Part shown: piece after piece, positions 3,122 through 55,597 of the stretch
How the letters are laid out: every line of letters starts with the position of its first letter
Position numbering within the stretch: the stretch's first letter is position 1
Assembly: GCA_965220745.1 (NCBI GenBank)
Contig: CBDCQT010000003.1
Location: 174,653-238,652 of the forward strand
Length of the DNA: 64,000 nt
Source: Alphaproteobacteria bacterium
GTDB lineage: Bacteria > Pseudomonadota > Alphaproteobacteria > UBA828
Reading direction: 5' to 3'
The notes under the pieces: model-generated
Told to the model about the DNA's origin: nothing
Seen by the model: the letters and a program-made list of their open reading frames with translations, nothing else
The model's database searches: none
Made by a program: the position numbers and the translations under genes

Positions 3122-3523
3122 GCGAGCGCAATTTTGGAGGTGATTCTGTACTCCGCTGTTATGATGGGGTAATTATGAGGTCCTGACGCGCTGGCGCTGA
3201 GCGCCCGAGAATTTCCGTAAGCGCTCAGGAAGCGGATTGATTACAACGTAAGCGTAGTCCTGCGTATTCCTGTCGGTAAGCGTTCCGTTCGCCCGTGGAG
3301 ATGTTGATCCACCCGCCGTTTCGCTTCCGCCAGCCCGATGATCGCAGGGGCGATTTTAGCGGCTGAGCGCGCGTTGCCAATCCCTTCTGAGCGGCCGGAG
3401 CCAGACGTCCTTGCGGGGCTTTGGGGCTGTGGAGACCGTGCCGTGTCGGCACAGTCCTCCGCGCCGAATCGAGCTTGTACAAGTCGCTGGTAACATGATT
3501 CGACATGCGCTATCGTCGAGCGC

Positions 3524-5923
3524 ATGGCGGTTCTCGACGATGATTTCCGCGCAGACGGGACGCTGAACGAGGGCGGTGACGGGCTCTGGTCGCCCCCCAG
3601 GCCGGCGCCATCGGGTGCGCCGCACGATTTGCCATCCCTGTACGAGCAGGAACGGGCGCGGGCCGACGCGGCCGAGGCACGCTGCGAAGAACTGCGCCAA
3701 GCGGAGCTTTCCGCCCGTACTGACGCTGGTTCGTGGAAGTCGCGCTTCAAGTCCTGCCGACGCCGGCTGAGCGAGGCCGAGGAGGAGACGAAGGAACTGC
3801 GCCGCGCGGCGAAGGACGTGCCGTCGTTGCAGGCCCAAGTGGCGCGCCTGACGACGCTGCTTTCCGAAGCCGGCATCGAGTCGAGCGAGACCGGGAAGGT
3901 CGAGGTGCTGGGCAAGGAAGTCGCCCGGCTTCGCAGGGCCTTGGCAGCGCAGCCGGGGAAGGCTGCGGCCGGGGAGGCTCGGCGGGCTCGCACGGCGCTG
4001 GAACAGGCGCAGCAGCACAAGGACACCATCAGGACGCAGCGCAAGGAGATCACCCGGCTGAACCGGGAAGTGGCCCGGCGCGACAAGGAGCTGGTCCGGC
4101 TCAATGAGCGCCTCGGCCAGCAGAAGGAACGGACGGAGGACATCAGGGAGACCGCCAAGAATCTGTCACAGGACTCTCTCCGGCTCTACAGGGAGGTCGG
4201 GTTCCTGCGCGACGCCGAGGCCCGATCCCGGTCGCTGTCCGAGGAGAACTTCTGGCTGCGCCATGCGCTTGACGTGTCCAGGCACGGGCAGAAGAAGTTG
4301 ACGGCCCGGATCGCCAAGCTCCGCGCGGCCGGAGCGACGCTGACGAAGTTGTCGTTCGACGAGGCGGCTCACCTGCGCAACGTTCTGCGACGGTCGCGAC
4401 GTCAGAAGACCATGATCGCCCGGCTGCGCAAGGAGAACGCCCGGCTGCGAAGGACCGCGCAGAGGGCGCGGAACCGGGTCGAGGCGCTGGAAGCCGACAT
4501 CGCGCGGCTGCGCTCGACCGGAGCGGTGCTGTCGAGAAGGCTCTACGGACGCAAGAGCGAGCAGCAGAAGAAGCCGGGCACGGGACGCAAGCGCGGCCAG
4601 CAGCGCGGCGCGCCCGGCCATGGCCGTACCCAGCGGCCCGGACTCGACGAACGGCTCGAAGAGCTCGAAGTGCCGGAGCAGGCGCGGGTCTGCGGGCACT
4701 GCGGCCAACCCTATGCGCCGAACGGCGCGGAGGTGTCCGCCCTGATCGAGTTCGAGGTCATCGTGTACAAGCGCGTGATCAGCCGTGAGCGATTGCGCCG
4801 GACCTGCGCGTGTGCGTCCTCGCCCGTGGAAGTGACCGCGCCCCCGGCGCCGCGGCTGTTCCCCACGACATCCTACGGAATCACCTTCTGGGCGCGCTTC
4901 CTCTTCGAGCACTGCGCCTGCTTCCGGCCCCTGCGCCGCGTCGCCGCGTGGTTCTCCAGCCAGGGACTGGCGGTCTCGCCGGGGACGCTGGCCAACAGCC
5001 GCAAGCGCTTCGCGGCGCTGTTCGAGAGCCTGTACGAGGCGATCCTCGCGCATCAGAACACCGCGGCGCTGCGCCATGCCGACGAGACCTCATGGCGCGT
5101 GCAGGAACTTCGTGGCGACGACTGCTCGAGCCGCGCCTGGCTGTGGACTTCGGTCAGCAGCGACGCGGTCTGCTTCCATATCGACCCGAGCCGCAGCGCC
5201 GAGGCGGCGCTCAAGCTGTTCGCCGAAGCCCTGCCCGGCACGATCATCGTCTGCGACCGCTATAGCGCGTACAAGCGCCTTGTTCGCCTTCTCGGGGACA
5301 TGGCGATTCTGGCCTACTGTTGGGCTCATCAACGCCGCGATTTTGTCGAGGCCGCCGCCGGCCAGCCTCGGCTGGAGCAATGGTGCCAGGGATGGGTCGG
5401 GCGGATCGCGGAGATCTACCGGCTGAACGGGGAGCGGCTCGAACATTACGACCCCGGCAGCAAACGCCAGACGGCGGCGTTCAGGAAGGCGACGCGCAAG
5501 CTGAAGAAGGCGCTCGACCGGCTGTTCGCGCAGGCCGAAGCGGAACTGGCCGCCTTGCCGGACCACGCGCGCGAGGCCAGGGCGCTGCGCTCCCTGCTCA
5601 ACCATCGCGAGGGGCTGTGCGTCTTCGTCGACAACCCCCTGGTCCCCATGGACAACAATTTTGCCGAGAGAATCCTGCGCGCGCCCGCGATAGGGCGAGG
5701 GTTGTCGCACGGCTCCGACAGCGAGGACGGCGCCCGGTTCACCGCGATCATGTACTCGGTCGTCGCCACGCTCTCGATGAACGGCATCGACGTCCTGCGC
5801 TGGCTTCAGGCGTGGCTCGAAGCGTGCGCGAAGAACGGCGGCCAACCGCCCGATGACCTGTCGGCCTGGCTGCCATGGTCGATGAGCGAGAAGCGCAGGC
5901 GCAAGTTCACGGCGCCGGGATGA
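3524..5923 (+). CDS. tnpC: IS66 DDE transposase with long N-terminal coiled coil
   Basis: LYGRKSE, RGQQRGAPGHGR, CxxC, HADETSW, CDRYSAY, CWAHQRRDF, DNNFAER, WLPW. Confidence 0.93.
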   Translation: MAVLDDDFRADGTLNEGGDGLWSPPRPAPSGAPHDLPSLYEQERARADAAEARCEELRQAELSARTDAGSWKSRFKSCRRRLSEAEEETKELRRAAKDVPSLQAQVARLTTLLSEAGIESSETGKVEVLGKEVARLRRALAAQPGKAAAGEARRARTALEQAQQHKDTIRTQRKEITRLNREVARRDKELVRLNERLGQQKERTEDIRETAKNLSQDSLRLYREVGFLRDAEARSRSLSEENFWLRHALDVSRHGQKKLTARIAKLRAAGATLTKLSFDEAAHLRNVLRRSRRQKTMIARLRKENARLRRTAQRARNRVEALEADIARLRSTGAVLSRRLYGRKSEQQKKPGTGRKRGQQRGAPGHGRTQRPGLDERLEELEVPEQARVCGHCGQPYAPNGAEVSALIEFEVIVYKRVISRERLRRTCACASSPVEVTAPPAPRLFPTTSYGITFWARFLFEHCACFRPLRRVAAWFSSQGLAVSPGTLANSRKRFAALFESLYEAILAHQNTAALRHADETSWRVQELRGDDCSSRAWLWTSVSSDAVCFHIDPSRSAEAALKLFAEALPGTIIVCDRYSAYKRLVRLLGDMAILAYCWAHQRRDFVEAAAGQPRLEQWCQGWVGRIAEIYRLNGERLEHYDPGSKRQTAAFRKATRKLKKALDRLFAQAEAELAALPDHAREARALRSLLNHREGLCVFVDNPLVPMDNNFAERILRAPAIGRGLSHGSDSEDGARFTAIMYSVVATLSMNGIDVLRWLQAWLEACAKNGGQPPDDLSAWLPWSMSEKRRRKFTAPG

Positions 5924-6801
5924 CCGGCGCGGTCGAGTGCCGCTACTACGGCCGCGACTTCACCACTGAGGAAATGGCGTTGCTGCGCGCCCTCGTCGCG
6001 TCCGACCCGCAGCCGACCCGCGCCGCCCTGTCGAGAGAGTTCTGCCGGCGCATCGGCTGGCTCAAGCCCGACGGCGGGATCAAGGACATGATGGCCCGTG
6101 TCACCATGCTCGCCATGCACCGCGACGGCGTGATCGCCCTGCCGCCGCCGAGGAGTCGGAAGCACCGGCCCAGGCCGATCGTGTTCGGACCCGACACCGA
6201 GCCGCCGCTGTTCCCTCCACCGACGACCCTCGACGAGGTCCGCCCCCTCGACTTCCGCATCGTCGTGAGCGGCAGCCGGGAAGGCAGGCTGTGGAACGAG
6301 TTCGTCGCCCGCTACCACTACCTCGGATACAAGACCCTGGTCGGCGCCCAGATGCGCTACGCCGTCCATGACCGCAACGGCTGGCCGCTCGCCATGCTCG
6401 GCTTCTCCACCGCCGCCTGGAAGCTCGCCCCGCGCGACCGCTTCATCGGATGGACGCCCGAGATGCGCGAGAAAAACCTGCCGCTCGTGGTCGACAACCC
6501 GCGCTTCCTGATATCGCCGTGGATCGAGATCCCCAACCTCGGCTCGCACATCCTCGCCATCGTGCGCCGCCGCCTGCCCACCGACTGGTCCGAGCGCTAC
6601 AACGTCACGCCCGTGCTGATCGAGACCTTCGTCGAAACCCCGCGCTACACCGGCGCCGTCTACCGGGCCTCGGGCTGGACCCATGTCGGGACCACCCAGG
6701 GGCGCGGACGCTACGACCGGGACAGGTTCTACGACAAGCCCCGCAAGGACGTCTGGCTCCGGCCGCTCAGAAGGGATTGGCAACGCGCGCTCAGCCGCTA
6801 A
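5920..6801 (+). CDS. DUF4338 (DruA-like) protein, IS-associated
   Basis: YHYLG...G.QMRY, RDRFIGW, NPRFLI.PW, LIETFV, G.VYRASGW..VG.TQGRGR; ATG overlaps the tnpC stop. Confidence 0.85.
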   Translation: MTGAVECRYYGRDFTTEEMALLRALVASDPQPTRAALSREFCRRIGWLKPDGGIKDMMARVTMLAMHRDGVIALPPPRSRKHRPRPIVFGPDTEPPLFPPPTTLDEVRPLDFRIVVSGSREGRLWNEFVARYHYLGYKTLVGAQMRYAVHDRNGWPLAMLGFSTAAWKLAPRDRFIGWTPEMREKNLPLVVDNPRFLISPWIEIPNLGSHILAIVRRRLPTDWSERYNVTPVLIETFVETPRYTGAVYRASGWTHVGTTQGRGRYDRDRFYDKPRKDVWLRPLRRDWQRALSR

Positions 6802-7227
6802 AATCGCCCCTGCGATCATCGGGCTGGCGGAAGCGAAGCGGCGGGTGGATCAACATCTCCACGGGCAAACGGAACGCTTACTCCTGTCGCTCAAACCCTA
6901 CATGTCGACGGCGGGATCGCCCCTCTCGGGGTCGAGTCGCACGCTCTCGACGGCGGCGACTCGGGCCGGTCCGGGACGAGGCGGGAGAGCGGGATCGGGT
7001 CGGTGCCGGCGGGCCTGATTGACGTGCGTGGCATGGCGGAGAGGGGGTGTCGTGGCATTTTGGCCACAGTGCCCATGGAAAACGACCGACCGTTAGAATT
7101 CGGTCATAAATTCGGTTGCGCGAGGGGGGTCGGTTGCCTCATTCTCCGGCTCCAGTGGGTTGGGACCGGTCCGAGCACGGGCGGTATGAGACCCAGAGGC
7201 TTTGGACCAATGAAAACAGAGGAGACA

Positions 7228-7242
7228 GAAGCATGAAGAAGG
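7228..7242 (+). repeat. Core site GAAGCATGAAGAAGG followed by non-porin sequence (attL-like junction)
   Basis: Porin RBS and ATG present, but the frame ends after 27 codons (stop at 7316); homology to the porin loci ends exactly here. Confidence 0.85.
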
Positions 7243-7274
7243 AAGCGCGCTGTATGGGCAAGCGCTTCGTTCAT

Positions 7275-7399
7275 GCGACATTCCTACGCTTGACTACGAT
7301 TGGCTACGACAAGTAGCTGATTCTATACACTGATCGTTCATCCCTCCCCGTAGCTTCCGTATCGACTTCGCGACTCCTGTACGCAGGCGTACGCAGGGG
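7275..7399 (+). promoter_or_regulatory. Two arrays of ~10-bp periodic direct repeats upstream of the integrases
   Basis: GCGACATTCC-TACGCTTGAC-TACGATTGGC-TACGACAAGT (7275-7314) and GCGACTCCTG-TACGCAGGCG-TACGCAGGGG (7370-7399), then TTGACA at 7401. Confidence 0.7.
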
Positions 7400-7606
7400 T
7401 TTGACACCACTTGCTTGCGTGGCGCTTACGGGATCGTGTACCCTCTCCCGGCGTGGTCGAGGCGTTCGGCCACGCGGCGACGGCGGGATCGAGGTGCCGT
7501 GCGTATGTTGGCGCGGCCCAGATCATATGGGGTGCAACAGCCTCCCTGACCATCGCCATTTCATGATCGAACGCCCTCTCGCGGTGGTCAACGGGGTGGT
7601 GATTTT

Positions 7607-8797
7607 ATGTCACAGTACGGTGAGCGCACAATCTCAAAACGGACCGTCGATGCCCTTTCCGTCGAGGATCGGGACGCCATCTTCTGGGACCGGGACCTGT
7701 CCGGCTTCGGGGTGCGCGTCTACCCCTCCGGCCGCAAGGTCTACGTGGTGCAGAGCCGGGGTCCGGGGGGCTCCAGGCGGGTCACGCTGGGCCGGCACGG
7801 GAAGATCACCGCAGAGCAGGCGCGCAAGCGCGCCGCCGGGATCATCGACAGGATCAAGACCGGGCAGGAGCCGCTGCCGGTTGAGCCCAAGAAGGAGAAG
7901 GGGCCGACCGTAGCCGACCTTGCCGACCGCTTCATGCGCGCGCATGTGGCGGTGAACTGCAAGCCTGCGACGGCGGTGCGCTATGGCGGGCTGCTCAGGA
8001 ACTGCATCCTGCCCGTCCTGGGCTCCATGCCCATCGGCTCGGTCGAGCGCACGCACGTGGCGGACCTGCACTACGCGCTGCGTGACCGGCCGAGCTCGGC
8101 GAACAGGTCGGTCGACATTCTGAAGAAGATGTATTCCCTGGCCGAGGTGTGGGGCCTTCACCCGCAGGGGCGGAACCCGTGCCGGTCCGTGCGCAAGTAC
8201 AAGGAGCGCAAGCCACAGCGGTTCCTGAGCGCCGAGGAGTACCAGTGCCTGGGCCGGGTCCTGGACGAGATGGAGGCGGAGGGCACGGCCTGGCTCCCCG
8301 CGATTGCCGCGATTCGCCTGCTGATCCTGACCGGCTGCCGGCGCAACGAGATCCTGTCGCTGCGATGGGACGACGTCGACCGGTCCTCGGGCGAGTTGCG
8401 CCTGAGGGATGCGAAGACGGGCGGCAGGATGGTACCGCTGACGCCCACGGCGGCGGCGGTGCTGGACGCGATCCCGCGCATGCCGGGCAGTCCGTGGGTG
8501 ATCGCAGGGAAGCGGCCGGGGAAGCACCTGAGGAACGTCAACGAGCTCTGGTATCGCCTGCGGGTCCGGGCCGACCTGAAGGACGTGCGCCTCCATGACC
8601 TGCGTCATTCCTGGGCCAGCAGGGCGCTGGCGCTCGGCGAGAGCCTGCCGATGATCGGCAGGCAGCTGGGCCACACGCAGGTGCAGACGACGGCGCGCTA
8701 CGCGCACCTGGCACAGGACACGGAGAAGGTCTCTGCGGCCAGGGTGGCGGACAGCATCGAGGCCGACATCATGGTTCCGGACGCGGAGGCGGCATGA
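7607..8797 (+). CDS. Tyrosine recombinase/integrase with N-terminal arm-binding domain (Int1)
   Basis: WDRDLSGFGVRV arm domain; catalytic R (TGCRRNE), K (AKTG), HDLRH, LGH, Y (TARYAH). Confidence 0.95.
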   Translation: MSQYGERTISKRTVDALSVEDRDAIFWDRDLSGFGVRVYPSGRKVYVVQSRGPGGSRRVTLGRHGKITAEQARKRAAGIIDRIKTGQEPLPVEPKKEKGPTVADLADRFMRAHVAVNCKPATAVRYGGLLRNCILPVLGSMPIGSVERTHVADLHYALRDRPSSANRSVDILKKMYSLAEVWGLHPQGRNPCRSVRKYKERKPQRFLSAEEYQCLGRVLDEMEAEGTAWLPAIAAIRLLILTGCRRNEILSLRWDDVDRSSGELRLRDAKTGGRMVPLTPTAAAVLDAIPRMPGSPWVIAGKRPGKHLRNVNELWYRLRVRADLKDVRLHDLRHSWASRALALGESLPMIGRQLGHTQVQTTARYAHLAQDTEKVSAARVADSIEADIMVPDAEAA

Positions 8798-8836
8798 TGC
8801 GCGGGGGACCGGGTACAACCGAGGAGATCGCGCGCC

Positions 8837-10054
8837 ATGGCTAAGCTGCACTACAGGTCGATCTCGAAGCGCATGGTGGAGGCGCTGGAGGTGGACAGGG
8901 ACACGATCTTCTGGGACCGGGAGCTTTCGGGCTTCGGGGTGCGCGCCTATGCGTCTGGCAAGAAGGTGTACATCGTGCAGGCCCGCGCGAAGGGGAAGTC
9001 GCGGCGGGTCACGGTGGGCCGGCACGGGGTGCTGACGGCCGAGCAGGCGCGCCAGCGGGCGGCGCAGATGATCACGCGCATCAAGGCGGGGGAGGAGGTG
9101 AGCCCCAAGAGTCCCGAAGCGCCCAGGCCGGAGGGTCCGACGGTTGCAGAGCTGGCGGAGCGCTACCTGACGGAGCATGTGGCTGTCCGGTGCAAGCCGA
9201 GGACCGTGGAACTGTGCCGCCTGATGCTGAAGAACCACGTCCTTCCCGCGCTGGGCGACGTTCCCATCGAGGCCGTTGAGCGCAAGCAGGTGGCCGATCT
9301 TCACTTCCGCCTGCGCGACCGGCCGGCCACGGCGAACCACGTGGTTGCGGTTCTGTCGCGCATGTTCAATCGGGCGGAGGCGTGGGAGCTGGTGCCGGAG
9401 GGGACCAATCCGTGCCGCGCGTTTCCGAAGTACAAGACCCGCAAGCACGAGCGGTTTCTGACCGAGGAGGAGTTCCGGCGCCTTGGCCGCGTGCTGGCCG
9501 AGGCCGCCGACGAGGGCGGCGCGTCGAAGTACGCGGTGGCTGCGCTGCGCCTGCTGATGCTGACGGGGTGCCGTCGCAGCGAGATTCTGGGCCTGCGATG
9601 GGCCGACGTGGACCTGGAGGCGAAGGTGCTGCACCTCGCCGATTCGAAGACGGGTCCCAGGGCGGTGCCGCTGTCGCCTGCGGCGGCAAGGCTTCTGTCC
9701 GATCTGCCGCGCGTCACGGACAATCCCTGGGTGATTGTGGGCAAGAAGCGCGGCACGCACCTGCGCAACCTCAACCAGTCCTGGGACGTCATCCGCCGCC
9801 GCGCCGGTCTGGAGGACGTGCGGCTTCATGACCTGCGTCACAGCTGGGCCAGCAGGGCGCTTGCGCTGGGCGAGAGCCTGCCGATGATCGGCAGGCTGCT
9901 CGGTCACACGCAGGTCGAGACCACCGCGCGGTATGCGCACCTTGCGCGGGATTCCGTCAAGGAGTCGGCGGCCAAGGTCGCGGCCAGCATCGGGGAGGAC
10001 CTCTACAGGCACCGGGAGGCGGCTGGTGGTCATCTTCACCGGGCAGGCTCCTGA
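8837..10054 (+). CDS. Tyrosine recombinase/integrase, tandem paralogue (Int2)
   Basis: Same architecture; TGCRRSE, SKTG, HDLRH, LGH and TARYAH all intact. Confidence 0.95.
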   Translation: MAKLHYRSISKRMVEALEVDRDTIFWDRELSGFGVRAYASGKKVYIVQARAKGKSRRVTVGRHGVLTAEQARQRAAQMITRIKAGEEVSPKSPEAPRPEGPTVAELAERYLTEHVAVRCKPRTVELCRLMLKNHVLPALGDVPIEAVERKQVADLHFRLRDRPATANHVVAVLSRMFNRAEAWELVPEGTNPCRAFPKYKTRKHERFLTEEEFRRLGRVLAEAADEGGASKYAVAALRLLMLTGCRRSEILGLRWADVDLEAKVLHLADSKTGPRAVPLSPAAARLLSDLPRVTDNPWVIVGKKRGTHLRNLNQSWDVIRRRAGLEDVRLHDLRHSWASRALALGESLPMIGRLLGHTQVETTARYAHLARDSVKESAAKVAASIGEDLYRHREAAGGHLHRAGS

Positions 10055-10096
10055 GCGGTGAGCGCTGACGCTCATCCGCTCGTTTAGGATCGGCCC

Positions 10097-11101
10097 ATGC
10101 ACTTCGTCGCTCTCGTCGCCGCGCTTCTGGCACTCCCGTCGTTGGCCTTCGCCGCCTGCGAGGGGCAGGACTGGCGTACCCAGCTTGCGCCGGAGACGAT
10201 GCAGGAGATTCGGGACAGCCTGGCGCACGTGCCGTTTCACCGGGGGATCGCGTTCGAGGCGGTCCGCGGCGAGAGCCGGCTCACCCTGTTCGGCACCGTC
10301 CACGTGTACGATCGAGGCGTCCATGTCCCGGACGATATCGCCGCGCGCATCCGCTCGGCCGACCTCGTTCTCGTGGAAGCGACGCCGGAGGTGATGGCGT
10401 CCTTCCGGCAGAGGCTGGCGGAGGACTACGCGCTGTCGTTCGATGTGTCCGGCCCTCGTCTCTGGAGCCGTCTCACGCCTCGGGAGTGGGCCGTCCTTCT
10501 CCGCGCCCTCCTGGCCCGGGGCATTGATGCCGAGGTGGCCGAGCGGATGCGGCCCTGGTTCGCCGCTGCCATGCTGGAGCAAGCCCCTTGCGACATTGCT
10601 GCCAGGGCGGAGGGCGGCAAGATCCTCGACGAGCGGGTCGAGGCGCTGGCGCGCGATGCGGGTGTGGCCGTGGGCGGCCTGGACGAGGATGCGGAGCGGC
10701 TTCTGACCTACTTCTCCGGTCTGCCGGAGGACGAGCAGCTCGATCTTCTGCGCCTGACGCTCGCGTCCCACGCGTCGGACGGCAGCCAGATCGTGACGCT
10801 GGTGCGCGGTTGGCAGGACGGCGAGGTGGCTCTTGCGTGGGAGGTTGCCAACGCCCGCGCTGCCGCGCTCACCGGGGACGGCGCGGCGGTTGAGGCGTGG
10901 TTCGCCCGGCTGCACGAGGTTCTCGTGGCGGCGCGCAATCGGGAGTGGATGCGGCGGCTTCTGGAGTTGAGCGGCGCGGTCCCGCATATCGTCGTAGCGG
11001 TCGGTGCGATGCATCTTCCTGGCGAGGACGGGCTTCTGCGTCTGCTCGAGCGGCGCGGCTTCGCGATCCGTACCCTGATCCTGGCGCCGCGAGACGGATG
11101 A
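10097..11101 (+). CDS. TraB/GumN (Tiki-like) family exported protein
   Basis: Signal peptide; LFGTVH, MRPW, RNREW, VAVGAMHLPGEDGLLRLL..RGF. Confidence 0.88.
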   Translation: MHFVALVAALLALPSLAFAACEGQDWRTQLAPETMQEIRDSLAHVPFHRGIAFEAVRGESRLTLFGTVHVYDRGVHVPDDIAARIRSADLVLVEATPEVMASFRQRLAEDYALSFDVSGPRLWSRLTPREWAVLLRALLARGIDAEVAERMRPWFAAAMLEQAPCDIAARAEGGKILDERVEALARDAGVAVGGLDEDAERLLTYFSGLPEDEQLDLLRLTLASHASDGSQIVTLVRGWQDGEVALAWEVANARAAALTGDGAAVEAWFARLHEVLVAARNREWMRRLLELSGAVPHIVVAVGAMHLPGEDGLLRLLERRGFAIRTLILAPRDG

Positions 11102-11461
11102 GGGTTCGACGGGCTTGCCCGGCATGAGCCGGGGACGCCGGAAACGGCGAGATGCTGCAGCTGTGACGGCCTCCGAATCACCGGCGGCCTTGCTCACCGT
11201 GTCCGGCGTGGTGGCCGCGTCGGTGGACCAGGACGCAGGCGGCACCCCCTCCCCGATCATGACGCCTCGCCGCTGGCTGCGCTGCTCGCGAGCGGCAAGG
11301 AGCGCGGCCATGTCGCCGGCACCGGTTTCGGCCGGGAACTCTCATTGACGCGCGGATACATCCACCGGATCGCGAGCGGAACCCTGCGGAGGTTGAAGCG
11401 CCCCTCGCGTGCTTCGCAGCCTCCGCGATCCCTGTGCTGTCCTCTCCACCCCGCATCGCCG

Positions 11462-11920
11462 TCAGCGCATGAAGCGGGCGCGGTTGCCCCGCCCCGCGCG
11501 GCGGCGCAGGGAGACGACGGCCGCCCACGCCGGCAGACTTCCAGCCGCCGCGCAGACGACCACCGCGAACGGCCCGAGCATGGCGGCCTGCGCGCACCCG
11601 GCGACAGTCAGTGGGGCCAGGACCGCCGCAAGCCACCATGCCGTTCCTGCGCGACCCCTGCGCCTCAGCGCAGCGACAGGCAGAGCCAGCAGCAGGCCCG
11701 CCGGCGCCAGCAGGACCAGGTCCGGCGATATGACCGGACCCAGCTGCTCGGGCTGCCCGCCGGCAGCGAGGAACGCGAGGCAACAGCCGGCCGGCAGCCA
11801 GACCAGACCCAGCGCCGCACCTGCCAGGCGTTGCCCGCGCTGTCCGCCCTTCATCCGGTGCCGGCCGTCGAACGGCCGCGGGGGATAGCGCACGTGCGTC
11901 AGCGAGATCGGCTCGGTCAT
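11462..11920 (-). CDS. Hypothetical membrane protein
   Basis: About four hydrophobic segments; start uncertain. Confidence 0.45.
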   Translation of the reverse strand: MTEPISLTHVRYPPRPFDGRHRMKGGQRGQRLAGAALGLVWLPAGCCLAFLAAGGQPEQLGPVISPDLVLLAPAGLLLALPVAALRRRGRAGTAWWLAAVLAPLTVAGCAQAAMLGPFAVVVCAAAGSLPAWAAVVSLRRRAGRGNRARFMR

Positions 11921-12057
11921 GAAAGTCGTCCGCGGCGGGATGGCGCGCAATAGGTCAGAACGGCGCCCGCACTGCAAGCCCGCAGGTCATGCCCGAGCCG
12001 GCCCTACTCCTCTCCTCCCCGCCGCCTCCTCGACGGGCCCCGGGTCCGCAGCCGGTC

Positions 12058-12170
12058 CCGCGCGGTTCAGCACACTCACGCGCAGGCACACGTCGCGGCC
12101 GCCATCGTCGGAGGCGACGAAGCCGAAGCCCTTGCCGGCGTCGTGGAACTTGACCACGCCGAGCAGCCCC
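12058..12170 (-). pseudogene. Cold-shock domain fragment
   Basis: Manual translation GVVKFHDAGKGFGFVASDDGGRDVCLRVSVLNRAG (RNP1 KGFGFV); no proper start, truncated. Confidence 0.7.
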
Positions 12171-12387
12171 TCTACCGGCGCTCCAGCCGTCTCTCTCCGC
12201 TGCCCGTGCCGGTCATCCGCCGTCCCGCGCGTTCACAATACCGTCAAGGGGGCAAAATCGCTTTCGCGCACCGCCGACGTTCAGCCACAATGACATGGGT
12301 TTCGCGCGGCGCGGCTGCCCGAAGAGGCGGCGCGAAGCCACGATCCCAGGAAACCGGCAACGCGCCTGCGAGGAGGACGTACCGAAG

Positions 12388-12612
12388 ATGATCAAGGAAA
12401 CTGTGGTCGCCGTGAGTATCGTCACCATGGCGGCCGGTGCCGCTCTTGCGCCGACGGCCGTATCCGCCGATGACGGGCGGATCGTCGTCGCGGACTCGCA
12501 TGATCCGTGCAACCCGTGCGCGGCATGCAACCCGTGCGCAGCAGACCCCTGCAACCCGTGTGCTGCGTGCAATCCGTGTTGCGCCGATCCCTGCAACCCT
12601 TGTGCCTGCTGA
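12388..12612 (+). CDS. Small exported Cys-rich CNPC-repeat protein (74 aa)
   Basis: AGGAGG at 12371, signal peptide, five CNPC units, 12 Cys in the C-terminal half. Confidence 0.8.
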   Translation: MIKETVVAVSIVTMAAGAALAPTAVSADDGRIVVADSHDPCNPCAACNPCAADPCNPCAACNPCCADPCNPCAC

Positions 12613-12641
12613 CGCGTCGCGCATTTCCGATCTTTTCCGGG

Positions 12642-12668
12642 GACGCCGCCTCAAGAGAGGCGGCGTTC
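12642..12668 (+). terminator. Hairpin downstream of the CNPC gene
   Basis: ACGCCGCCTC-AAGA-GAGGCGGCGT, short U tract. Confidence 0.5.
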
Positions 12669-12781
12669 TTACGTTGAGCCCCGCGCCTTTCGCCGCCATG
12701 GGGTCCGCACACCGGCGTGAGGGCTATGAGGGCGACTCGGAGACCGGCACTAAGGTGACGTTCTCGCCAAATCTCCACTCT

Positions 12782-12821
12782 CTTGACTGCATCTGCCCCC
12801 ACTTGACTGCATCTGCCCCCA
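12782..12821. repeat. 20-bp tandem repeat x2
   Basis: CTTGACTGCATCTGCCCCCA twice. Confidence 0.9.
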
Positions 12822-12914
12822 TAAGAGGGAGAGGCCGGCCGTGACGCGGGCGGCGGGGGCGGCGCTGCGAAGAGCGTTTCCCCCGCGGCGACCACGGACG
12901 AGGGGGAACGGACG

Positions 12915-13238
12915 ATGCGGACCGGCCGGATGTTCCATCGCGACGCGCAGACCTATCTGGTGCATTTGTTCGGCAGAGGCCTCGACGACGAGCGCTACGT
13001 GGTCGAGACGTACCGCTCGCGTCCCGACGGGCGGATCGAGCCCGTCGAGCCGGAGCAGTCCAGGACGAAAGGGCGACGCAGGCAACGACGCACGATCGCG
13101 AGCTTGGCCGCGGTGAAGAAAATGCGGCCCGAACGCGACCAGATCATCGTCTGCACGGGCGTCAAGCTGGCAGGCTCCGGGGTCCAGCTCTACGGATGGC
13201 AGGCGACGGGCCTGGTCGCCGCCCGCTACGCGCGCTGA
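12915..13238 (+). CDS. Hypothetical protein
   Basis: GAGGGGG RBS, protein-like composition, stop 15 bp before the next ORF. Confidence 0.65.
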   Translation: MRTGRMFHRDAQTYLVHLFGRGLDDERYVVETYRSRPDGRIEPVEPEQSRTKGRRRQRRTIASLAAVKKMRPERDQIIVCTGVKLAGSGVQLYGWQATGLVAARYAR

Positions 13239-13253
13239 CCGGGGTGGCCGGCC

Positions 13254-14063
13254 ATGCCGCTCAAGGACCCGGTGAATAAGCAGGCGCGGGATCGCCGCCT
13301 CCGCCAGCGCCACGCCGCTCGCCTCAAGAAGCGTTTGTGTACCCGGTGCGGCCGCGTTCCGCCCGAGCCCGGCCTCAAGGTATGTACCGACTGTGCGGAG
13401 AAGCGCCGCACCGCCGACCGCGCCCGCCGGGCGAAGGCGCGGGCCAAGGGTCTCCCCTACGCCGGCCGCGATCCGGAGCGCTGCCGCCGAGCCGACCGCG
13501 CCGGCGACAGGCGGCGGCGGAGGGCGTGGAAGGAGGCAGGGCTGTGTACATCCTGCGGCCGCCGCCGGCCGGAGGACAACCGCTCCGTCTGCGAGCCGTG
13601 CCGCAAGGCTCGGCGCGCACTCGACCGCCGGCGCTATGCTGCGCGAAAGGCCGCCGGTCGCTGCGTGCGCTGCACGCAGCCCACGGTCGGCGGTTTATCC
13701 AGATGCGGCCGGTGCTCGGCGCTGGCGGCGGAACGCGCGTCTCCCGAACGGGAGAGCGCCGTCAGCAGGAAACGATACGCCGCCCGCCGCGCGCAGGGCG
13801 CGTGTGTGGATTGTGGAGTTCCCGCCGGTGGCTCGGCCCGCTGTGAGCGCTGCGCATATCGGTCCAACTCCCGCGCGCCCGAGCGTCATCTCGTGTCGAT
13901 GTGGCCGCCGCAGATCACCGTGATCGAGTTGGAGACGGGCGAGGAGCTGGGCGTCTTCGAGACCGAGGCCGAGGCGGCCGCCTGCATCGTCTTCGCCGGG
14001 CTGCGGCCCGACCAGGTGGAAGTGCGGACCAACGTGCCCCTCCTCGCGATTTGCGCACGGTGA
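13254..14063 (+). CDS. Arg-rich protein with four CxxC...CxxC zinc-finger modules
   Basis: CTRC..CTDC, CTSC..CEPC, CVRC..CGRC, CVDC..CERC; acidic C-terminal domain. Confidence 0.75.
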   Translation: MPLKDPVNKQARDRRLRQRHAARLKKRLCTRCGRVPPEPGLKVCTDCAEKRRTADRARRAKARAKGLPYAGRDPERCRRADRAGDRRRRRAWKEAGLCTSCGRRRPEDNRSVCEPCRKARRALDRRRYAARKAAGRCVRCTQPTVGGLSRCGRCSALAAERASPERESAVSRKRYAARRAQGACVDCGVPAGGSARCERCAYRSNSRAPERHLVSMWPPQITVIELETGEELGVFETEAEAAACIVFAGLRPDQVEVRTNVPLLAICAR

Positions 14064-14258
14064 CCGTCCGCACGGTGACCGTCCACACCCCGCCAGGCAA
14101 GCACCGGCGGGGGGAAGGTGCCCAGGTCCGCCGGGACCTTCCGCAATCTGCGGCCGTCGGGGGCGTGCCGGCGGTCAAGGCGCTCTTGCGGACAAATCGC
14201 CTTGACGCAGGACGTGACGATCCATGAATGTACTATCTACTAGCGTGAGGGAAGAGCC

Positions 14259-14507
14259 ATGCGCACCGTCTCCCTGATGACCGCCAACCAGGAGTTCTCG
14301 AAGCTCGTCCGCGAGGTCGAGCGCGGAGAGGGCTTCCTGATCACCCGGCGGGGCCGGCCCGTCGCCAAGCTCGTGCCCCACAGCGCCGACAAGGACGCCG
14401 ATCCCGAGTGGGCGGCGGCCCATCGGCGCATGATGGCGCGGCTGAAGGAGGGAGCGTCGCTCGGCGGCCTCAGGATCGAACGGACCGCGCTTTATGACCG
14501 CGGTTAG
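14259..14507 (+). CDS. vapB: Phd/YefM-type antitoxin
   Basis: ANQEFSKLVREVERGE.FLITRRGRPVAKLVP; overlaps the PIN toxin gene. Confidence 0.9.
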   Translation: MRTVSLMTANQEFSKLVREVERGEGFLITRRGRPVAKLVPHSADKDADPEWAAAHRRMMARLKEGASLGGLRIERTALYDRG

Positions 14508-14955
14508 GGGGCGCTTCTCGCTGGATACCAACATTCTGGTCTATGCGGTCGACCGTGACGGCAGCGAGCGGCACTGGCTCTCCATGGAGTTGGTGGGGCG
14601 GGCGGCCCGGCGCGACTGCGTCCTGACGGTTCAGGCGCTGGCCGAGTTCTTTCATGCCACCACCCGGAAGGGCCTGCTCGAACCGTCCGAGGCCGGCCGG
14701 TTCGTGCGCGACTGGCTGGAGGTGTTCGAGGTCGCATCGGCCGACGGCGCGGCTCTCGCCGAGGCGATGGCAGCGGTGGACGAGCACCGGTTCTCGTTCT
14801 GGGACGCGATGCTTTGGGCGACCGCGAAGCGGGCGGGCTGCTCTGTCCTCGTGAGCGAAGACATGCAGCATGGACGCCGTCTCGGCGGTGTGGAGTTCGT
14901 CAACCCGTTTGCGCCCGACGGCCCCTCGGCGATGGCGACGATGTTCGATCTGTGA
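14494..14955 (+). CDS. vapC: PIN-domain toxin
   Basis: LDTNILVYA, QALAEF, SFWDAMLWATA, SEDMQHG, VNPF. Confidence 0.92.
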   Translation: MTAVRGRFSLDTNILVYAVDRDGSERHWLSMELVGRAARRDCVLTVQALAEFFHATTRKGLLEPSEAGRFVRDWLEVFEVASADGAALAEAMAAVDEHRFSFWDAMLWATAKRAGCSVLVSEDMQHGRRLGGVEFVNPFAPDGPSAMATMFDL

Positions 14956-15284
14956 GCTCCGCCGGCTAACCCGAGCTCTGCGCCTCCCGGCCCCGCAGGC
15001 CGTCCCGCCCCTGGCGCTCCCGCCGACGCGGCACCGAGCCGCCGCACCCCTCAAGCAAGGGCCGCATCCCGCTCTACCGATCCTCCTGGCGCCGTGCGTA
15101 GCGCCGCCATCGTGGCGGCCGGAAGTGCGGGCTGCGATGTCCTTGAGAACCCTGCAGGCCCCGGAGCAGGCCGCTGCCGGGAGGAGGAGAGGGACCTGGA
15201 GGAGGGTGAACGGAGGAGGTCACGAGAGAGATCGATCCGTTCGCCAACCTTCGTCATCAACTCGGAAGAACAGGAGACAAGACC

Positions 15285-15737: not shown

Positions 15738-15781
15738 GCCAAGACCCCGCAGCGGGCCTTCCCCGCCCGCTCGCCCCAGAG

Positions 15782-19720: not shown

Positions 19721-19780
19721 GGGTCAGGAGTGCGCAGGGCTACGCCAGAGCCCTCAGTGCTACGCAGGAGTTCGATGGGA
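19721..19780 (+). promoter_or_regulatory. Degenerate 10-bp repeat array in the probable oriT region
   Basis: GGGTCAGGAG-TGCGCAGGGC-TACGCCAGAG and TACGCAGGAG-TTCGATGGGA, upstream of the RHH gene. Confidence 0.45.
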
Positions 19781-20078
19781 ACATGTCCCTGTTTCGGGTG
19801 ACGGCGCAAGTGTCTGTAAGGATGCGTGTTTCTGTCGACGTGCCCGACCTGCGTCGCGTAGGATTCGTGCTACCGGCCCTGCGCATTACGATGTATTGCA
19901 TCGCGCATTCGCCCGAATTTTGCCTCGGCCGGCGTGTGATGAGAGGCGGCCAGGACCATAATGGCCCAGAAATCCCGGCGGGCGACGAGCTCGCACAGTC
20001 GACCCGATGCCGAAGGGGCTCGTGCCGCTCAGCCGGTCCGGCTGGGACATGATTCCGGACCAACGACGGAGGCTGTCG

Positions 20079-27065: not shown

Positions 27066-27332
27066 TCATGGCCCCGAATTCCCGGTGCCGTCATCGTCGT
27101 CGTCCCCGTCTTCCGGGACCGCGTCCGTGAGGCCGTCGTCGGAGGTCGAATGCCGGCGCCGCGCCACTGCCCACTTCAGGACTTCGGACAGCAGATAGCG
27201 CACGAGTACGCTGCCGACGACATAGAAAGGCGGGCCCCCACCGCGTGATCGGTAGCTCTCCAGCGTGCGGTGGCTCAGGCCCACATACGCCGCCACTTCC
27301 CGCGTGGTCATGAGGCGAGTGTTCTCGTCCAT
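27066..27332 (-). CDS. AlpA/excisionase-type winged HTH protein (candidate RDF)
   Basis: LMTTREVAAYVGLSHRTLESYRSRGGGPPF...VRYLLSEVLKW. Confidence 0.88.
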   Translation of the reverse strand: MDENTRLMTTREVAAYVGLSHRTLESYRSRGGGPPFYVVGSVLVRYLLSEVLKWAVARRRHSTSDDGLTDAVPEDGDDDDDGTGNSGP

Positions 27333-27729
27333 CTTCTCTCTCCCTTGTGTCGTGCCCCATCGACCGGAAACCCCGCTCCGGCCTGAGCACGAAGCCGGGA
27401 CCGCTCATTGCCCTCTCGCCGAACCTTTGCGGCTCGATGCCGGTCTCCTCGAGGAAGGCCTCCTGCAGGAAGCCGGGGCCGATGGGCTCCAGGCTTTTGG
27501 GGGCCGGCACCGTGTCGGCAGTGCCGAGGCGCACGTCCGAGCCCCGGCCGAGGCGGCCAGGTAAGGGCGCGTCGCCGGGCACGGCGCTGCCGAGGGCGCA
27601 ATGCGAGAGATGCTCGCGAGCGATGTACGCCTCGACGCTGTGCACCTCGGTGCTGTGCGCCTCGGTGCTGTCGATCAGCGCCCGACGGCTGCCTGGGGCA
27701 ATACGGTCGATGTGGAGTGATGTGCTCAT
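27091..27729 (-). CDS. Degenerate tandem Cro/Xre-like HTH protein overlapping the excisionase-like gene
   Basis: Two repeats: VEAYIARE...RLGRGSDVRLGTADTV and AFLEETGIEPQRFGERAMSGPGFVLR; frame kept in both copies. Confidence 0.4.
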   Translation of the reverse strand: MSTSLHIDRIAPGSRRALIDSTEAHSTEVHSVEAYIAREHLSHCALGSAVPGDAPLPGRLGRGSDVRLGTADTVPAPKSLEPIGPGFLQEAFLEETGIEPQRFGERAMSGPGFVLRPERGFRSMGHDTREREDGREHSPHDHAGSGGVCGPEPPHAGELPITRWGPAFLCRRQRTRALSAVRSPEVGSGAAPAFDLRRRPHGRGPGRRGRRR

Positions 27730-27829
27730 GGGAGAACATATAGAGATCAAACTCCTGCCGGCAACTGTAGGAAATCCTCCAAAAAACTGTAGGGAAAAGG
27801 CTATTTGCTATAGCAATTGGCTAAACGCG

Positions 27830-27880
27830 ACGACATAAGACGACATGAGACGACAGGAGTACGCTGGAGTACGATCCAGT
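27830..27880 (+). promoter_or_regulatory. Five 10-bp direct repeats upstream of the HTH operon
   Basis: ACGACATAAG-ACGACATGAG-ACGACAGGAG-TACGCTGGAG-TACGATCCAG. Confidence 0.75.
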
Positions 27881-27949
27881 ATGGAGATCAAATGTTCGTG
27901 ATGCCGGCACGGTCCTTCCGGGCGCGAGAATTCGCCGCCATCCGCCGCA

Positions 27950-39493: not shown

Positions 39494-39985
39494 TGTCTCC
39501 TCTGTTTTCATTGGTCCAAAGCCTCTGGGTCTCATACCGCCCGTGCTCGGACCGGTCCCAACCCACTGGAGCCGGAGAATGAGGCAACCGACCCCCCTCG
39601 CGCAACCGAATTTATGACCGAATTCTAACGGTCGGTCGTTTTCCATGAGCACTGTGGCCAAAATGCCACGACACCCCCTCTCCGCCATGCCACGCACGTC
39701 AATCAGGCCCGCCGGCACCGACCCGATCCCGCTCTCCCGCCTCGTCCCGGACCGGCCCGAGTCGCCGCCGTCGAGAGCGTGCGACTCGACCCCGAGAGGG
39801 GCGATCCCGCCGTCGACATGTAGGGTTTGAGCGACAGGAATACGCAGGACTACGCTTACGTTGTAATCAATCCGCTTCCTGAGCGCTTACGGAAATTCTC
39901 GGGCGCTCAGCGCCAGCGCGTCAGGACCTCATAATTACCCCATCATAACAGCGGAGTACAGAATCACCTCCAAAATTGCGCTCGC
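39494..39985. promoter_or_regulatory. 492-bp putative invertible promoter/RBS segment, copy 2 (intact)
   Basis: Flanked by 124-bp inverted repeats (39370-39493/39986-40109, 3 mismatches seen) starting with the core; contains array GCGACAGGAA-TACGCAGGAC-TACGCTTACG at 39831-39860. Confidence 0.75.
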
Positions 39986-41001: not shown

Positions 41002-41030
41002 GCGTAAACATCGTCGTCTATGGCTTTGAG

Positions 41031-50696: not shown

Positions 50697-50972
50697 TCAG
50701 GGATCGGGTCTGGCGGCCAGCACCTCGTCGAGGCTGGCCGCGATCAGCACCGCCTCCGCCCAGGCTTCCAGATCGGAGGCTGACCCGCCGCGAACCTGCT
50801 CGCGAACGGCCTCCGGCAATGCTCCGAAACGCAGTTCCATCAGGCGGAGAAGCAGCCCGGCTTGGCCCGTGGCGATACCCTCGGCCAAGCCCTCGGTCCG
50901 TCCCTGGGTTCGTCCGCGTTCAACCCCCTCAGCTCTTCCCTGTTCGATCCAGGCTTCCGCCACCGTGCCCAT
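50697..50972 (-). CDS. Internal RpnS-type antitoxin ORF (91 aa)
   Basis: GGGAGG-cgctg-ATG retained. Confidence 0.65.
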   Translation of the reverse strand: MGTVAEAWIEQGRAEGVERGRTQGRTEGLAEGIATGQAGLLLRLMELRFGALPEAVREQVRGGSASDLEAWAEAVLIAASLDEVLAARPDP

Positions 50973-51688
50973 CAGCGCCTCCCAGCGGTCCGGCTTGGTC
51001 CGGCGCAACGACGCCTCCAGCAAAGGCGGCGTCAGGTTCATGCGCTCCGCGATGTAGCGAATAATATGGCGCTCGAACTCGCTCCCCGCAACCGGCCCGC
51101 CGGTCATCTGATCGAGAATGTCAGGCGGGATGGCGTCGGCATGGACCACCTTGAGCGCCAGCAGCCCGGCCCGCACCTCAGGCGTGCGAGAGAGCCGGAG
51201 CGGCGCGATCTCCCCGAGATCATGCAGCACGTAGGCAAACTCCCGCAGGAAGGGTGCGAGCTCGGCGGGCGCCTCGATCATTTCCGCCACCGAGTGGGCC
51301 GCCGTCCATCGACCCTGGCCGCGGTAGAAGACGAGCGGGATGATCGGCGGGAGCCTGTCCTTGGCCGTGCCGCCCTCGATCTCGCGGAGCCAGATGTTGG
51401 CCATGTACTTCAGAATCTGAAGGGGCGTGTCGGCGTCGACATTGCTCTTGTGCTCGAGGAGGACATAGATCCGGGCCGGGTGTCCGGTCTTGAGTCTCAC
51501 CTTGAACAGGGCGTCGCACTGTGTCCTCGCGGCGTCTGCGTCGATGAAGCTGCCCTCGACCGCCTCGGGCGGAGTATCGGGATCGAGCAGATCGGCGACT
51601 TCCTGGGGAAGGTATTCCGCGAGCAGCGCGCCCGCACGCGCCGGGTTCGCGACCAGCGCCTGGAACAGCGCGTCGTGGGAAGGCTCAC
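50697..51688 (-). pseudogene. Rpn gene frameshifted by a 10-bp deletion near codon 7
   Basis: CCCACGACGCGCTGTTC versus intact CCCACGACGCCGCACGACGCACTGTTC. Confidence 0.85.
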
Positions 51689-53841: not shown

Positions 53842-54141
53842 TCAGGGTCCGGGTCTGGCCGCCAGCACTTCGTCGAGGCTGGCCGCGACCAGCACCGCCG
53901 CCGCCCAGGCTTCGAGTTCGGAGGCCGACGCGCCGCGAACCCGCTCGCGGACCGCCTCCGGCAATTCACCGAAACGCAGTTCCAGCTGGCGACGCAGGAA
54001 CTCAGCCTGGCCCGTGGCAATACCTTGGGCCAGTCCCTCTGTTCGTCCCTCGGCCAGACCCTCTGTTCGTCCCTCGGTCCGGCCGCGTTCGATCCCCTCT
54101 GCTCTTCCCTGTTCGATCCAGGCTTCCGCCACCGTGCCCAT
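53842..54141 (-). CDS. Internal RpnS-type antitoxin ORF (99 aa)
   Basis: GGGAGG-cgctg-ATG in frame. Confidence 0.65.
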   Translation of the reverse strand: MGTVAEAWIEQGRAEGIERGRTEGRTEGLAEGRTEGLAQGIATGQAEFLRRQLELRFGELPEAVRERVRGASASELEAWAAAVLVAASLDEVLAARPGP

Positions 54142-54867
54142 CAGCGCCTCCCAGCGGTCCGGCTTCGTCCGGCGCAACGACGCCTCCAGCAAGGGCGGCG
54201 TCAGGTTCATGCGCTCGGCGATGTAACGAACAATATGGCGCTCGAACTCGCTCCCCGCAACCGGCCCGCCGGTCATCTGATCGAGAATCTCGGGCGGGAT
54301 GGCGTCGGCATGGACCACCTTGAGCGCCAGCAGCCCGGCCCGTACCTCGGGCGTTCGGGAGAGCCGGAGCGGCGCGATCTCCCCGAGATCGTGCAGGACG
54401 TAGGCGAACTCCCGCAGGAAGGGTGCCAGCTCTTCGGGGGCCTCGATCATTTCCACCACCGAGCGGGCCGCCGTCCAACGCCCCTGGCCGTGGTAGAAGA
54501 CGAGCGGGATGATTGGCGGGAGCCTGTCCCTGGCGGTGCCGCCCTCGATCTCGCGGAGCCAGATGTTGGCCATGTACTTCAGAATCTGCAGCGGCGTGCC
54601 GGCGTCGACGCTGCTCTTGTGCTCGAGGAGCACGTAGATCCGGGCCGGGTGTCCGGTCTTGAGTCTGACCCTGAAGAGGGCGTCGCACTGTGTCCTCGCG
54701 GCGTCCGCGTCGACGAAGCTGCCCTCGACCGCCTCGGGCGGAGTATCGGGATCGAGCAGATCGGCGACTTCCTGAGGAAGATACTCCGCGAGCAGCGCGC
54801 CGGCACGAGCTGGGTTGGCGACCAGCGCCCGGAACAGTGCGTCGTGCGGCGTCGTGGGAAGGCTCAC
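53842..54867 (-). CDS. Intact Rpn family recombination-promoting nuclease (YhgA-like)
   Basis: PHDALFRAL, SFVD, CDALFRV, YVLLEHKS, LPPIIPLVFYHG, DUF4351-like tail. Confidence 0.92.
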   Translation of the reverse strand: MSLPTTPHDALFRALVANPARAGALLAEYLPQEVADLLDPDTPPEAVEGSFVDADAARTQCDALFRVRLKTGHPARIYVLLEHKSSVDAGTPLQILKYMANIWLREIEGGTARDRLPPIIPLVFYHGQGRWTAARSVVEMIEAPEELAPFLREFAYVLHDLGEIAPLRLSRTPEVRAGLLALKVVHADAIPPEILDQMTGGPVAGSEFERHIVRYIAERMNLTPPLLEASLRRTKPDRWEALMGTVAEAWIEQGRAEGIERGRTEGRTEGLAEGRTEGLAQGIATGQAEFLRRQLELRFGELPEAVRERVRGASASELEAWAAAVLVAASLDEVLAARPGP

Positions 54868-55544
54868 CCGGCATCCTTCCTGGCAGCGGCACCCGGCAAC
54901 GGGCTGGGGATGTACAACGTGTGCGCGACGGCGATCAATTCCGACATGGTGCCAGCCTACGCCGAACCGGCAGTCCCGGTCGACCGGGATGCGCGGGTTC
55001 AGCGGGACGGGTCCTGCGACTCATCAATCGCGATCCGGAGGGCCGTCTAGCGGGCGCCCTCGCCGACGGCATCGGCCGGATCGGCAATGGGCGGGTGACG
55101 GGTTGCCGGCACGGCGGTTGGCGCCTCGAACGTTCCCGGTTTCGACCGCTTGCACCGAAACAACATCGGGTGCCGATGCTCCACGGGCATTGGAGAACAT
55201 GATCATTGTCGGCGCGCTCAGGCTGAGCGGAATGACCCACGGTGCTCTTCGGCGCCATGCACGGCACCGTTCTCTTCACGCACGTCGGGCAGGTGCCGGT
55301 GTCGTCCGCGCCTGAGGTCGGCTACAGGGTCGCGATGGACGAGCTGCCCCGCCGACGTGCTGCGTGGCGCAACTCATCGGTCTCACCGTCGAGGAGTTCA
55401 GCGGGCACCACGATGTCTCCGGCGGCAGGCATCCTCCACCTCCTGAATTCCCTGACCGCCAACCCTGTAGCGGTTGCGGCCGATGGCAAGCGCGATCTCG
55501 CGCCCGGAAGGGCCGTGCCGGCATCACGAACATTTGATCGCCAT

Positions 55545-55597
55545 ACTGGATCGTACTCCTGCGTACTCATGTCGTCCTATGTCGTCCTATGTCGTCG
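55545..55597 (-). promoter_or_regulatory. Five 10-bp direct repeats upstream of the HTH operon (copy 2)
   Basis: ACGACATAGG-ACGACATAGG-ACGACATGAG-TACGCAGGAG-TACGATCCAG on the minus strand. Confidence 0.75.

Follow-up and report, generated by a model that had tools for sequence, protein, structure and literature searches.

Gene Organization and Repeat Arrays of the Window

The analyzed window is the final 64 kb of contig C3 (CBDCQT010000003.1, positions 174,653 to 238,652) from an alphaproteobacterial genome (GCA_965220745.1, here G000; 4.82 Mb, 67% G+C). It contains three porin genes, a pair of tandem tyrosine integrase genes (Int1 and Int2), and an operon for a small helix-turn-helix (HTH) protein related to RdfS. 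Arrays of one short motif, repeated in a 10-bp register, lie upstream of genes from each of these groups (Table 1). Their distribution suggests that one DNA-binding protein governs the integrase, the excision-regulator operon, and the porin genes. The host genus appears to be sponge-associated, and part of the stretch is present in sponge metagenome runs.

Table 1. Repeat arrays and accompanying features of the 64-kb window. R1 is the profile model of the module described in the text.
Feature	Locus	Coordinates	Strand	Description	Support
Module copy A'	A (porin upstream region)	3212..3275	-	CGAC unit, two TACGC units, TTGTAA, GCGCTTACGG box; upstream of porin 1 (2118-3122, -)	R1 56.3 bits
Module copy A	A (porin upstream region)	39831..39895	+	Uninterrupted; 95 bp upstream of porin 3 (39991-41001, +)	R1 57.1 bits
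Array B	B (upstream of Int1)	7275..7314	+	CGAC unit, then three TACG units at 10-bp spacing; one mismatch	R1 E 0.052
Module C	C (upstream of Int1)	7370..7434	+	CGAC unit, two TACGC units, TTGACA, GCGCTTACGG box	R1 62.4 bits
Array D	D (19721-19790)	19721..19790	+	TGCGC and TACGC units in 10-bp phase, one unit skipped; ends in TACGCAGGAGTTCGAT	R1 E 0.12, 0.18
Array E	E (upstream of HTH operon)	27830..27889	+	Three ACGACA units, then TACGC, TACGA, TATGG, all in 10-bp register	R1 E 8.6e-4
Array E'	E (duplicate)	55545..55597	-	Duplicate of E beside second RdfS-like gene (56100-56366, +)	R1 E 1.3e-3
Int1 (7607-8797) and Int2 (8837-10054)		7607..10054	+	Tandem P4-like tyrosine integrases	PF00589
140-aa open reading frame (27308-27730) and RdfS-like 88-aa HTH_17 gene (27066-27332)		27066..27730	-		Pfam, PDB
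Segment U1		6882..7243	+	Inverted repeat I12; ends in ATGAAGAAGG	
IS66-family insertion sequence		3276..6881	+	3606 bp	Terminal inverted repeats and target duplication read
Open reading frames of the insertion sequence		3524-5923; 5875-6801		799-aa transposase; 308-aa DruA/DUF4338-like protein	
Outer-membrane beta-barrel protein gene, sulfotransferase gene, porin 1		31-3122	-		Pfam
TraB/GumN, Phd/PIN, SSB, Toprim, and YspA-like genes		After the integrases, up to ~19.9 kb			Pfam
NikA-like, 483-aa, TrwC relaxase, 518-aa, and 88-aa HTH_17 genes		20192-28348 and beyond			Pfam

A 10-bp Phased Motif

An initial annotation of the window had claimed arrays of this motif at seven coordinate ranges, and every one of them is found where it was placed. 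The exact pattern CGACN5TACGCNGGNNTACG occurs at 3253-3275(-), 7371-7393, 27851-27873, 39832-39854, and 55552-55574(-). These five are the only matches on both strands of the genome, and all five lie inside the window. Array B matches the pattern with one mismatch (7276-7298). The range 19721-19780, labeled "degenerate" already in the initial annotation, departs from the strict pattern and retains TGCGC/TACGC units in 10-bp phase. When up to two mismatches are allowed, six matches are found in the window (the sixth is array B) versus 0.11 expected, and six matches were reached in none of 100 shuffles. The reversed pattern has no match in 49 genomes of the order.

The phase of the units is equally clear. 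In the window, the spacing between TACG words shows a single peak at 10 bp, with nine pairs versus 0-3 at each other spacing from 4 to 25; in the remainder of the genome the same spacing peaks at multiples of 3, that is, at the codon period. Arrays A, B, C, and E each have at least three direct repeats with a period of about 10-11 bp, all in an exact 10-bp register. The motif is real and beyond chance. Within the genus, six of the 20 other genomes have the strict pattern; outside it, none of 28 genomes does. Short-word BLAST linked none of the site classes, and only pattern and profile searches did so.

The total of seven sites counts some of them twice. One inverted duplication (I21: 3073-3275 and 39832-40034, 94% identical) covers the arrays at 3246-3275 and 39831-39860, and another (I23: 27731-27929 and 55496-55694, 88% identical) covers those at 27830-27880 and 55545-55597. 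With two pairs of sites being copies within duplications, the seven sites stand for no more than five independent loci, designated A to E.

A Common Module Upstream of Integrase and Porin Genes

Beyond the repeats alone, A and C are copies of a gapless module of ~65 bp. Twelve instances from five genomes can be aligned over 67 columns without a gap, and 20 of these columns are invariant. In the module, a CGAC unit is followed at 10-bp steps by two TACGC units and then by a hexamer of the TTG type (TTGACA, TTGTAA, TTGGAA, or TTTGAT); next come a GCTT box and, last, a box that ends in TTACGG or TGACGG. From this alignment we built a sequence-only profile model, R1, leaving out B, D, and E. At E <= 0.01 it has ~100 matches in total, distributed over 19 of the 21 genomes of the genus, with a maximum of 18 per genome. 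In an alignment of 42 distinct instances, which was fitted to R1 and is therefore biased toward it, the columns for CGAC, TACGC, TACGC, TT.GA, GCTT, and TTACGG are conserved, in contrast to the variable 5-nt spacers.

In the window, the profile scan ranks E, E', B, and D right behind the training sites, with one interloper (13843-13886, ranked between B and D). All these non-training matches are confined to the array portion of the model. Hence, the five loci share the array, and the whole module is present only in A and C.

Gene context was examined at 30 loci matched by R1, eight of them training instances. Downstream of the module, there is a gene for an Int1/Int2-like integrase at 17 of these loci (two partial), a porin at three, and an IS66 transposase at one; at the remaining nine nothing identifiable follows. 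A third class of modules (TTGGAATTC type, e.g., C9:17376) has no identifiable downstream gene, and convergent genes for tyrosine recombinases/transposases of ~300 aa are located 0.5 kb away. A head-to-head arrangement is seen at locus L005 (G039:C3:1416901), where two inverted GTACTCCTG units are followed by a CGAC unit and TACGC units; ~860 bp downstream of this array there is a homologue of an open reading frame (ORF) of the integrase element, the one of 107 aa.

Two other interpretations of the module were set aside. Sigma-54 and extracytoplasmic function (ECF) sigma factor readings of its 3' part, judged by eye, were dropped because the required bases are not conserved between classes. As for replication iterons, no Rep family was found among the 44 scanned ORFs of the window, and the arrays precede int, porin, and directionality factor genes at many loci.

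Arrays in the Putative Arms of the Integrase Element

Module C lies 172 bp upstream of Int1, its repeats abut the TTGACA hexamer, and it has orthologues in five other genomes (G030, G037, G040, G039, and G034). The copy number of units in array B is variable, with three TACG units in G000 and two in the G040 orthologue. A 27-codon ORF with a good ribosome-binding site (7234-7317) overlaps array B and is intact in three genomes (G000, G030, and G037), whereas in G040 it is out of frame. This ORF may encode a leader peptide or may have arisen by chance. Int1 and Int2 each have an Arm-DNA-bind_3 domain (PF13356; Pfam E-values 2.6e-11 and 1.3e-9).

Contig C9 and C13:706044-719000 show synteny with the region from Int1 to ~19885, and homology to C9 ends at 19881-19885. 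On the left side, homology to G037 and G040 starts at ~7219-7230, and weak similarity continues for ~200 bp beyond. B and C are situated within ~30-190 bp of this left limit, and D is ~95-165 bp inside the right one (~19885). Upstream of the integrase pairs on contigs C8 and C9 there are also two arrays each, at the positions of B and C. Array D has a paralogue on contig C9 (94.5% identity), which then continues into different DNA; this places D in the right arm of a putative 12.6-kb integrase element. The earlier label of D as a probable origin of transfer (oriT) is not demonstrable. Arrays thus appear to be present in both arms of this ~12.6-kb element. Its ends are set by homology only, since neither a core repeat nor an empty site was found: comparison by eye of the left junction (~7230-7275) with the right limit (~19860-19900) yielded no direct repeat that could serve as the core of an attachment (att) site.

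Judging from sequence comparison, a family of dual-integrase integrative elements has proliferated in the G000 genome. A search for related loci with Int1 returned two, one of which, L001, is a 7710-bp contig (G030:C12). Tandem pairs of P4-like integrases are encoded on contigs C5, C8, C9, C10, C12, and C13 of G000, with at least ten pairs in total.

Porin Genes Behind the Module

The link between porin genes and the module is systematic across the genus and not peculiar to the window. When R1 coordinates were set against 31 porin matches, 13 of these, in nine genomes, proved to have a module 84-170 bp upstream, ten of them at 84-95 bp; the genomes are kin, so these counts are not independent events. 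The module-bearing porins include ones that are only 35-50% identical to porin 3. In G000, G030, G034, and G040 (degenerate in the last), a porin-facing and an integrase-facing module are divergent and ~0.5 kb apart.

In the window, a palindromic locus (37524-41975) consists of sulfotransferase 2, porin 2 (-), a 492-bp spacer, porin 3 (+), and sulfotransferase 3. Altogether, three porin and sulfotransferase cassettes are found (1041-3122, 37524-39489, and 39991-41975), the porins being 76-81% and the sulfotransferases 91-96% identical. In reverse complement, segment U1 matches the region upstream of porin 2 (U2, 39483-39839) at 99% identity. U1 and U2 form 363-bp inverted repeats that end at an ATGAAG start; porin 2 follows one repeat and the integrase element the other. 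The 32-kb segment between them could be invertible by homologous recombination. The G030 porin that stands behind the same upstream module is just 42-45% identical, which suggests that porin bodies diversify by exchange behind a fixed 5' region. The analysis yielded no evidence that the porin segment acts as an invertible switch.

Insertion of an IS66-Family Element into the Module

The porin-1 copy of the module, A', is split by an IS66-family insertion sequence (IS), which sits immediately 5' of its CGAC unit. Its long terminal inverted repeats start with GTAAGCG, and the 8-bp target duplication TCCTGTCG, read at 3268-3275 and 6882-6889, is the first unit of array A. The identical order of porin, A, U, B, C, and Int1 is observed without the IS in L001. 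The IS proteins match DDE_Tnp_IS66 (3.3e-55) and DruA (2.3e-38) in Pfam and NF033517 (4.5e-82) in NCBIfam. Among the papers listed in a literature search, none joined DUF4338 with IS66.

Similar insertions are observed in other genomes. IS66/DruA-like elements abut the module at one and the same position, 5' of the CGAC/CGAA unit, in G000, at L054 (G040:C3:83296), and at L051 (G039:C3:444128). These cases comprise two module classes and two IS relatives with transposases that are 43% identical. A fourth copy, L031 (G037:C10:189934), ends 28 bp upstream of a module. These positions suggest site-specific targeting of the module by IS66-family elements. The terminal heptamer GTAAGCG is also found inside the module, on the opposite strand.

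The RdfS-Like Operon and Array E

Array E is located ~100 bp upstream of the 140-aa ORF, the first gene of an operon that continues with the 88-aa HTH_17 gene, the 518-aa ORF, the TrwC relaxase, and the 483-aa ORF. The 88-aa protein belongs to Pfam HTH_17, and its best PDB match is 8DGL, the RdfS protein of ICEMlSym R7A (E 9.8e-8); it is thus RdfS-like. Homologues of HTH_17 are found in 19 of the 21 genomes of the genus. In seven of 12 loci, RdfS-like genes are preceded at 380-650 bp by E-type 10-bp arrays, defined here by a simple rule of three phased units; the other five loci have none by this rule. The HTH_17/relaxase gene set (from 20192-28348 on) has an inverted duplicate at 63117-55082.

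Other genes were identified by Pfam annotation of the 44 ORFs of the window selected by G+C content at the third codon position (GC3). They include several transposase genes and an 818-aa AEP-TOTE primase-helicase protein (31806-34262; PF22548, 1.3e-97). YhgA-like PD-(D/E)XK transposase_31 genes adjoin the AEP-TOTE gene and are present in three copies (30676-31617, 50697-51500, and 53842-54867). Neither Pfam nor NCBIfam yielded a match for the integrase element's small ORFs or for those of 140, 121, 518, and 483 aa. Contigs of four metagenome runs aligned to positions 1-20000 gave only fragmentary pieces, with no usable excision or inversion joint, and no RNA data set was listed as containing the stretch.

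Comparison with Known Systems

Direct repeats about one helical turn apart are found in att arms of phages, as in the case of the lambda P'1-P'3 arm sites, Xis sites, and the Cox boxes of P2. Such repeats are bound by small winged-helix proteins or arm domains that also regulate promoters. These are phage systems, unlike the present one, and we know of no cargo outer-membrane gene that bears an array of this type. Another parallel is provided by the OmpR boxes at ompF and ompC, which are 10-bp-phased direct repeats directly upstream of the porin -35 element. In contrast to these boxes, the array described here occurs predominantly next to mobile-element integrase genes and in one genus only.

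A close match in anatomy is KplE1 (CPS-53) of E. coli with its TorI and IntS proteins. According to the cited sections of the KplE1 study, attL and the integrase promoter overlap, a block of three TorI sites separated by 2 nt lies against the -35 element of PintS, an IntS arm site (P'1) overlaps the -10 element, and both TorI and IntS repress intS (PMC2951348). The element in the window is similar to these published features in that the putative int promoter region would overlap the recombination arm; three direct repeats with a ~10-bp period lie against the -35-like hexamer, with an integrase gene immediately downstream; and a further site would lie at the -10 position (PMC2951348). It differs in the sequence of the unit, in having two tandem integrases, and in that no consensus -10 was found. 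Moreover, here the same array also precedes the porin genes and the directionality factor/relaxase operon.

Similarity to ICEMlSym R7A concerns the protein and the set of target sites. In the cited portion of the RdfS study, RdfS binds attP upstream of intS as well as PrdfS and PrdfG, and its relative BldC binds one monomer per DNA turn (PMC11963761). Here too, the gene for the RdfS-related protein is followed by a relaxase operon, and attP upstream of intS together with the protein's own promoter corresponds to the distribution of C/B and E (PMC11963761). The same portion describes the RdfS sites as lacking a clear consensus, in contrast to the sharp and strictly phased motif observed here (PMC11963761). 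A further difference is the TrwC-type relaxase. To our knowledge, porin genes are not among RdfS targets.

Origin and Possible Function of the Arrays

The initial interpretation is supported in part. A single 10-bp motif does connect the integrase (B and C), the HTH operon (E), and the porins (A), and the class of site, the RdfS-like protein, and the porin link, here extended to the genus, are retained; the count of seven sites is not, and D would be an oriT only tentatively.

The repeats are observed directly, as are their phasing, conservation, and location, and from them we infer a binding protein, a promoter function, and a direction of regulation. The best explanation, to which we assign about an even chance, is that the arrays are candidate operators of an RdfS/TorI-type directionality factor that binds head-to-tail with one copy per helical turn, possibly together with Int arm domains. 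This reading is adopted because two published systems, KplE1 and RdfS, match the anatomy. The most likely binder would be an RdfS-like winged-helix recombination directionality factor (RDF) encoded by the element, and the integrase arm domains would use neighboring or overlapping sites. At C and its orthologues, where a CGAC unit and two TACGC units abut the -35-like TTGACA upstream of the first tandem integrase, RDF and Int would set the level of int expression. At B and D, in the two arms of the 12.6-kb element, the protein filament would bend DNA for excision, and at E, before the RdfS-like/relaxase operon, binding would provide autoregulation, as at PrdfS. Locus A would be a module fused to porin genes, which would come under the same control, so that porin transcription would follow the activation state of the element. 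A more specific scenario, in which the RDF or the integrase of the element directly controls the porin set via the excision operator and this operator is also a specific landing site for the IS66/DruA-like element, is possible but doubtful.

Several observations weigh against assigning the arrays to an RdfS-like protein. No HTH_17 gene was detected at E <= 1e-5 in the 12.6-kb integrase elements (7244-19885, C8, and C9), though modules are present in them. Because HTH_17 homologues occur in nearly all genomes of the genus, their co-occurrence with the module does not discriminate, and in G037 and G043, which have strong modules, the best HTH match is just 38-42% identical. Array E is oriented opposite to its operon, and its match to the module is limited to the array part. 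A scan for E. coli-type sigma-70 promoters found none in A, C, or E. Finally, RdfS itself is described, in the cited portion of the study, without a clear consensus motif (PMC11963761), whereas the present motif is sharp.

An alternative is that the N-terminal arm-binding domains of Int1 and Int2 recognize the units as arm-type sites, used for intasome assembly at attL/attR and for int autorepression, the RdfS-like protein not binding at all. Such an arrangement is known from the cited part of the KplE1 study, where the Int P' sites overlap PintS (PMC2951348). The presence of PF13356 in both integrases and the location of B and C (~30-190 bp) and D (~95-165 bp) near the left and right homology limits agree with it. 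In addition, no gene other than the integrase accompanies the module consistently in cis (17 of 30 loci), and modules occur in elements where an HTH_17 gene was undetected. It does not account for the E-type arrays that precede the RdfS-like operon in seven of 12 loci, ~20 kb from the integrases, or for the fact that the homology of the two E copies runs on past E, so that E is not at an element end; the porin-side copies are also far from any mapped att site. On balance, we consider arm sites alone rather unlikely. The units might instead be used by a host factor, e.g., a response regulator of the OmpR/PhoB type, the module being originally a porin promoter that was copied by the elements. 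Regulators of this family bind 10-11-bp direct repeats beside the -35 element of porin promoters. The module stands before 13 of the 31 porin matches, in nine genomes and at a near-fixed distance. The missing consensus -10 in the E. coli-type scan also fits an activator-dependent promoter. Still, such an origin is unlikely. The majority of copies are at integrase genes, and the exact motif was found in none of the 28 genomes outside the genus and is lacking in 14 of its 20 other members. In G041, where the sole module match (E <= 0.01) is porin-linked, the 3' part is preserved and the array part is degenerate. A Pfam scan of the 44 window ORFs, which would not cover a distant host gene, revealed no response-regulator domain.

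Common descent without any shared trans-acting factor, i.e., the spread of upstream DNA by duplication, recombination, and IS activity with a periodicity that has no function, is a still less probable explanation. It readily covers the two pairs of sites within large duplications, the recent exchange of porin and integrase upstream regions indicated by the 99% identity of U1 and U2, and the IS66-family elements adjoining several copies. It would not explain why the unit bases are conserved in 42 distinct copies while spacers and flanks have diverged, why the phase survives the loss or gain of a unit (D and B), or why E shares the array only and not the remaining module. The least credible possibility, to which we give very little weight, is that the units or the GTAAGCG-like flanking boxes are pseudo-ends for the IS66-family transposase or its DruA-like partner. 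It draws on the identical position of IS66-family ends at the module in G000, G040:C3, and G039:C3 and on the terminal heptamer inside the module, but 10-bp TACG arrays are absent from the IS ends, most modules have no IS nearby, and targeting accounts for the insertions and not for the conservation of the arrays.

Implications

Operator arrays for RDF and Int at att-proximal promoters are already known, and what is unusual here is that porin genes bear the same candidate operator. If one protein of the element reads the arrays at int, at the RDF/relaxase operon, and at the porins, excision and transfer would be coupled transcriptionally to the composition of the outer membrane, and activation of the element would rewire the cell surface. 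The recombination machinery of a mobile element would then clearly serve to regulate surface genes of its cargo or host. The sharp consensus would also make these arrays an unusually tractable RDF/arm-site operator for structural and binding studies.

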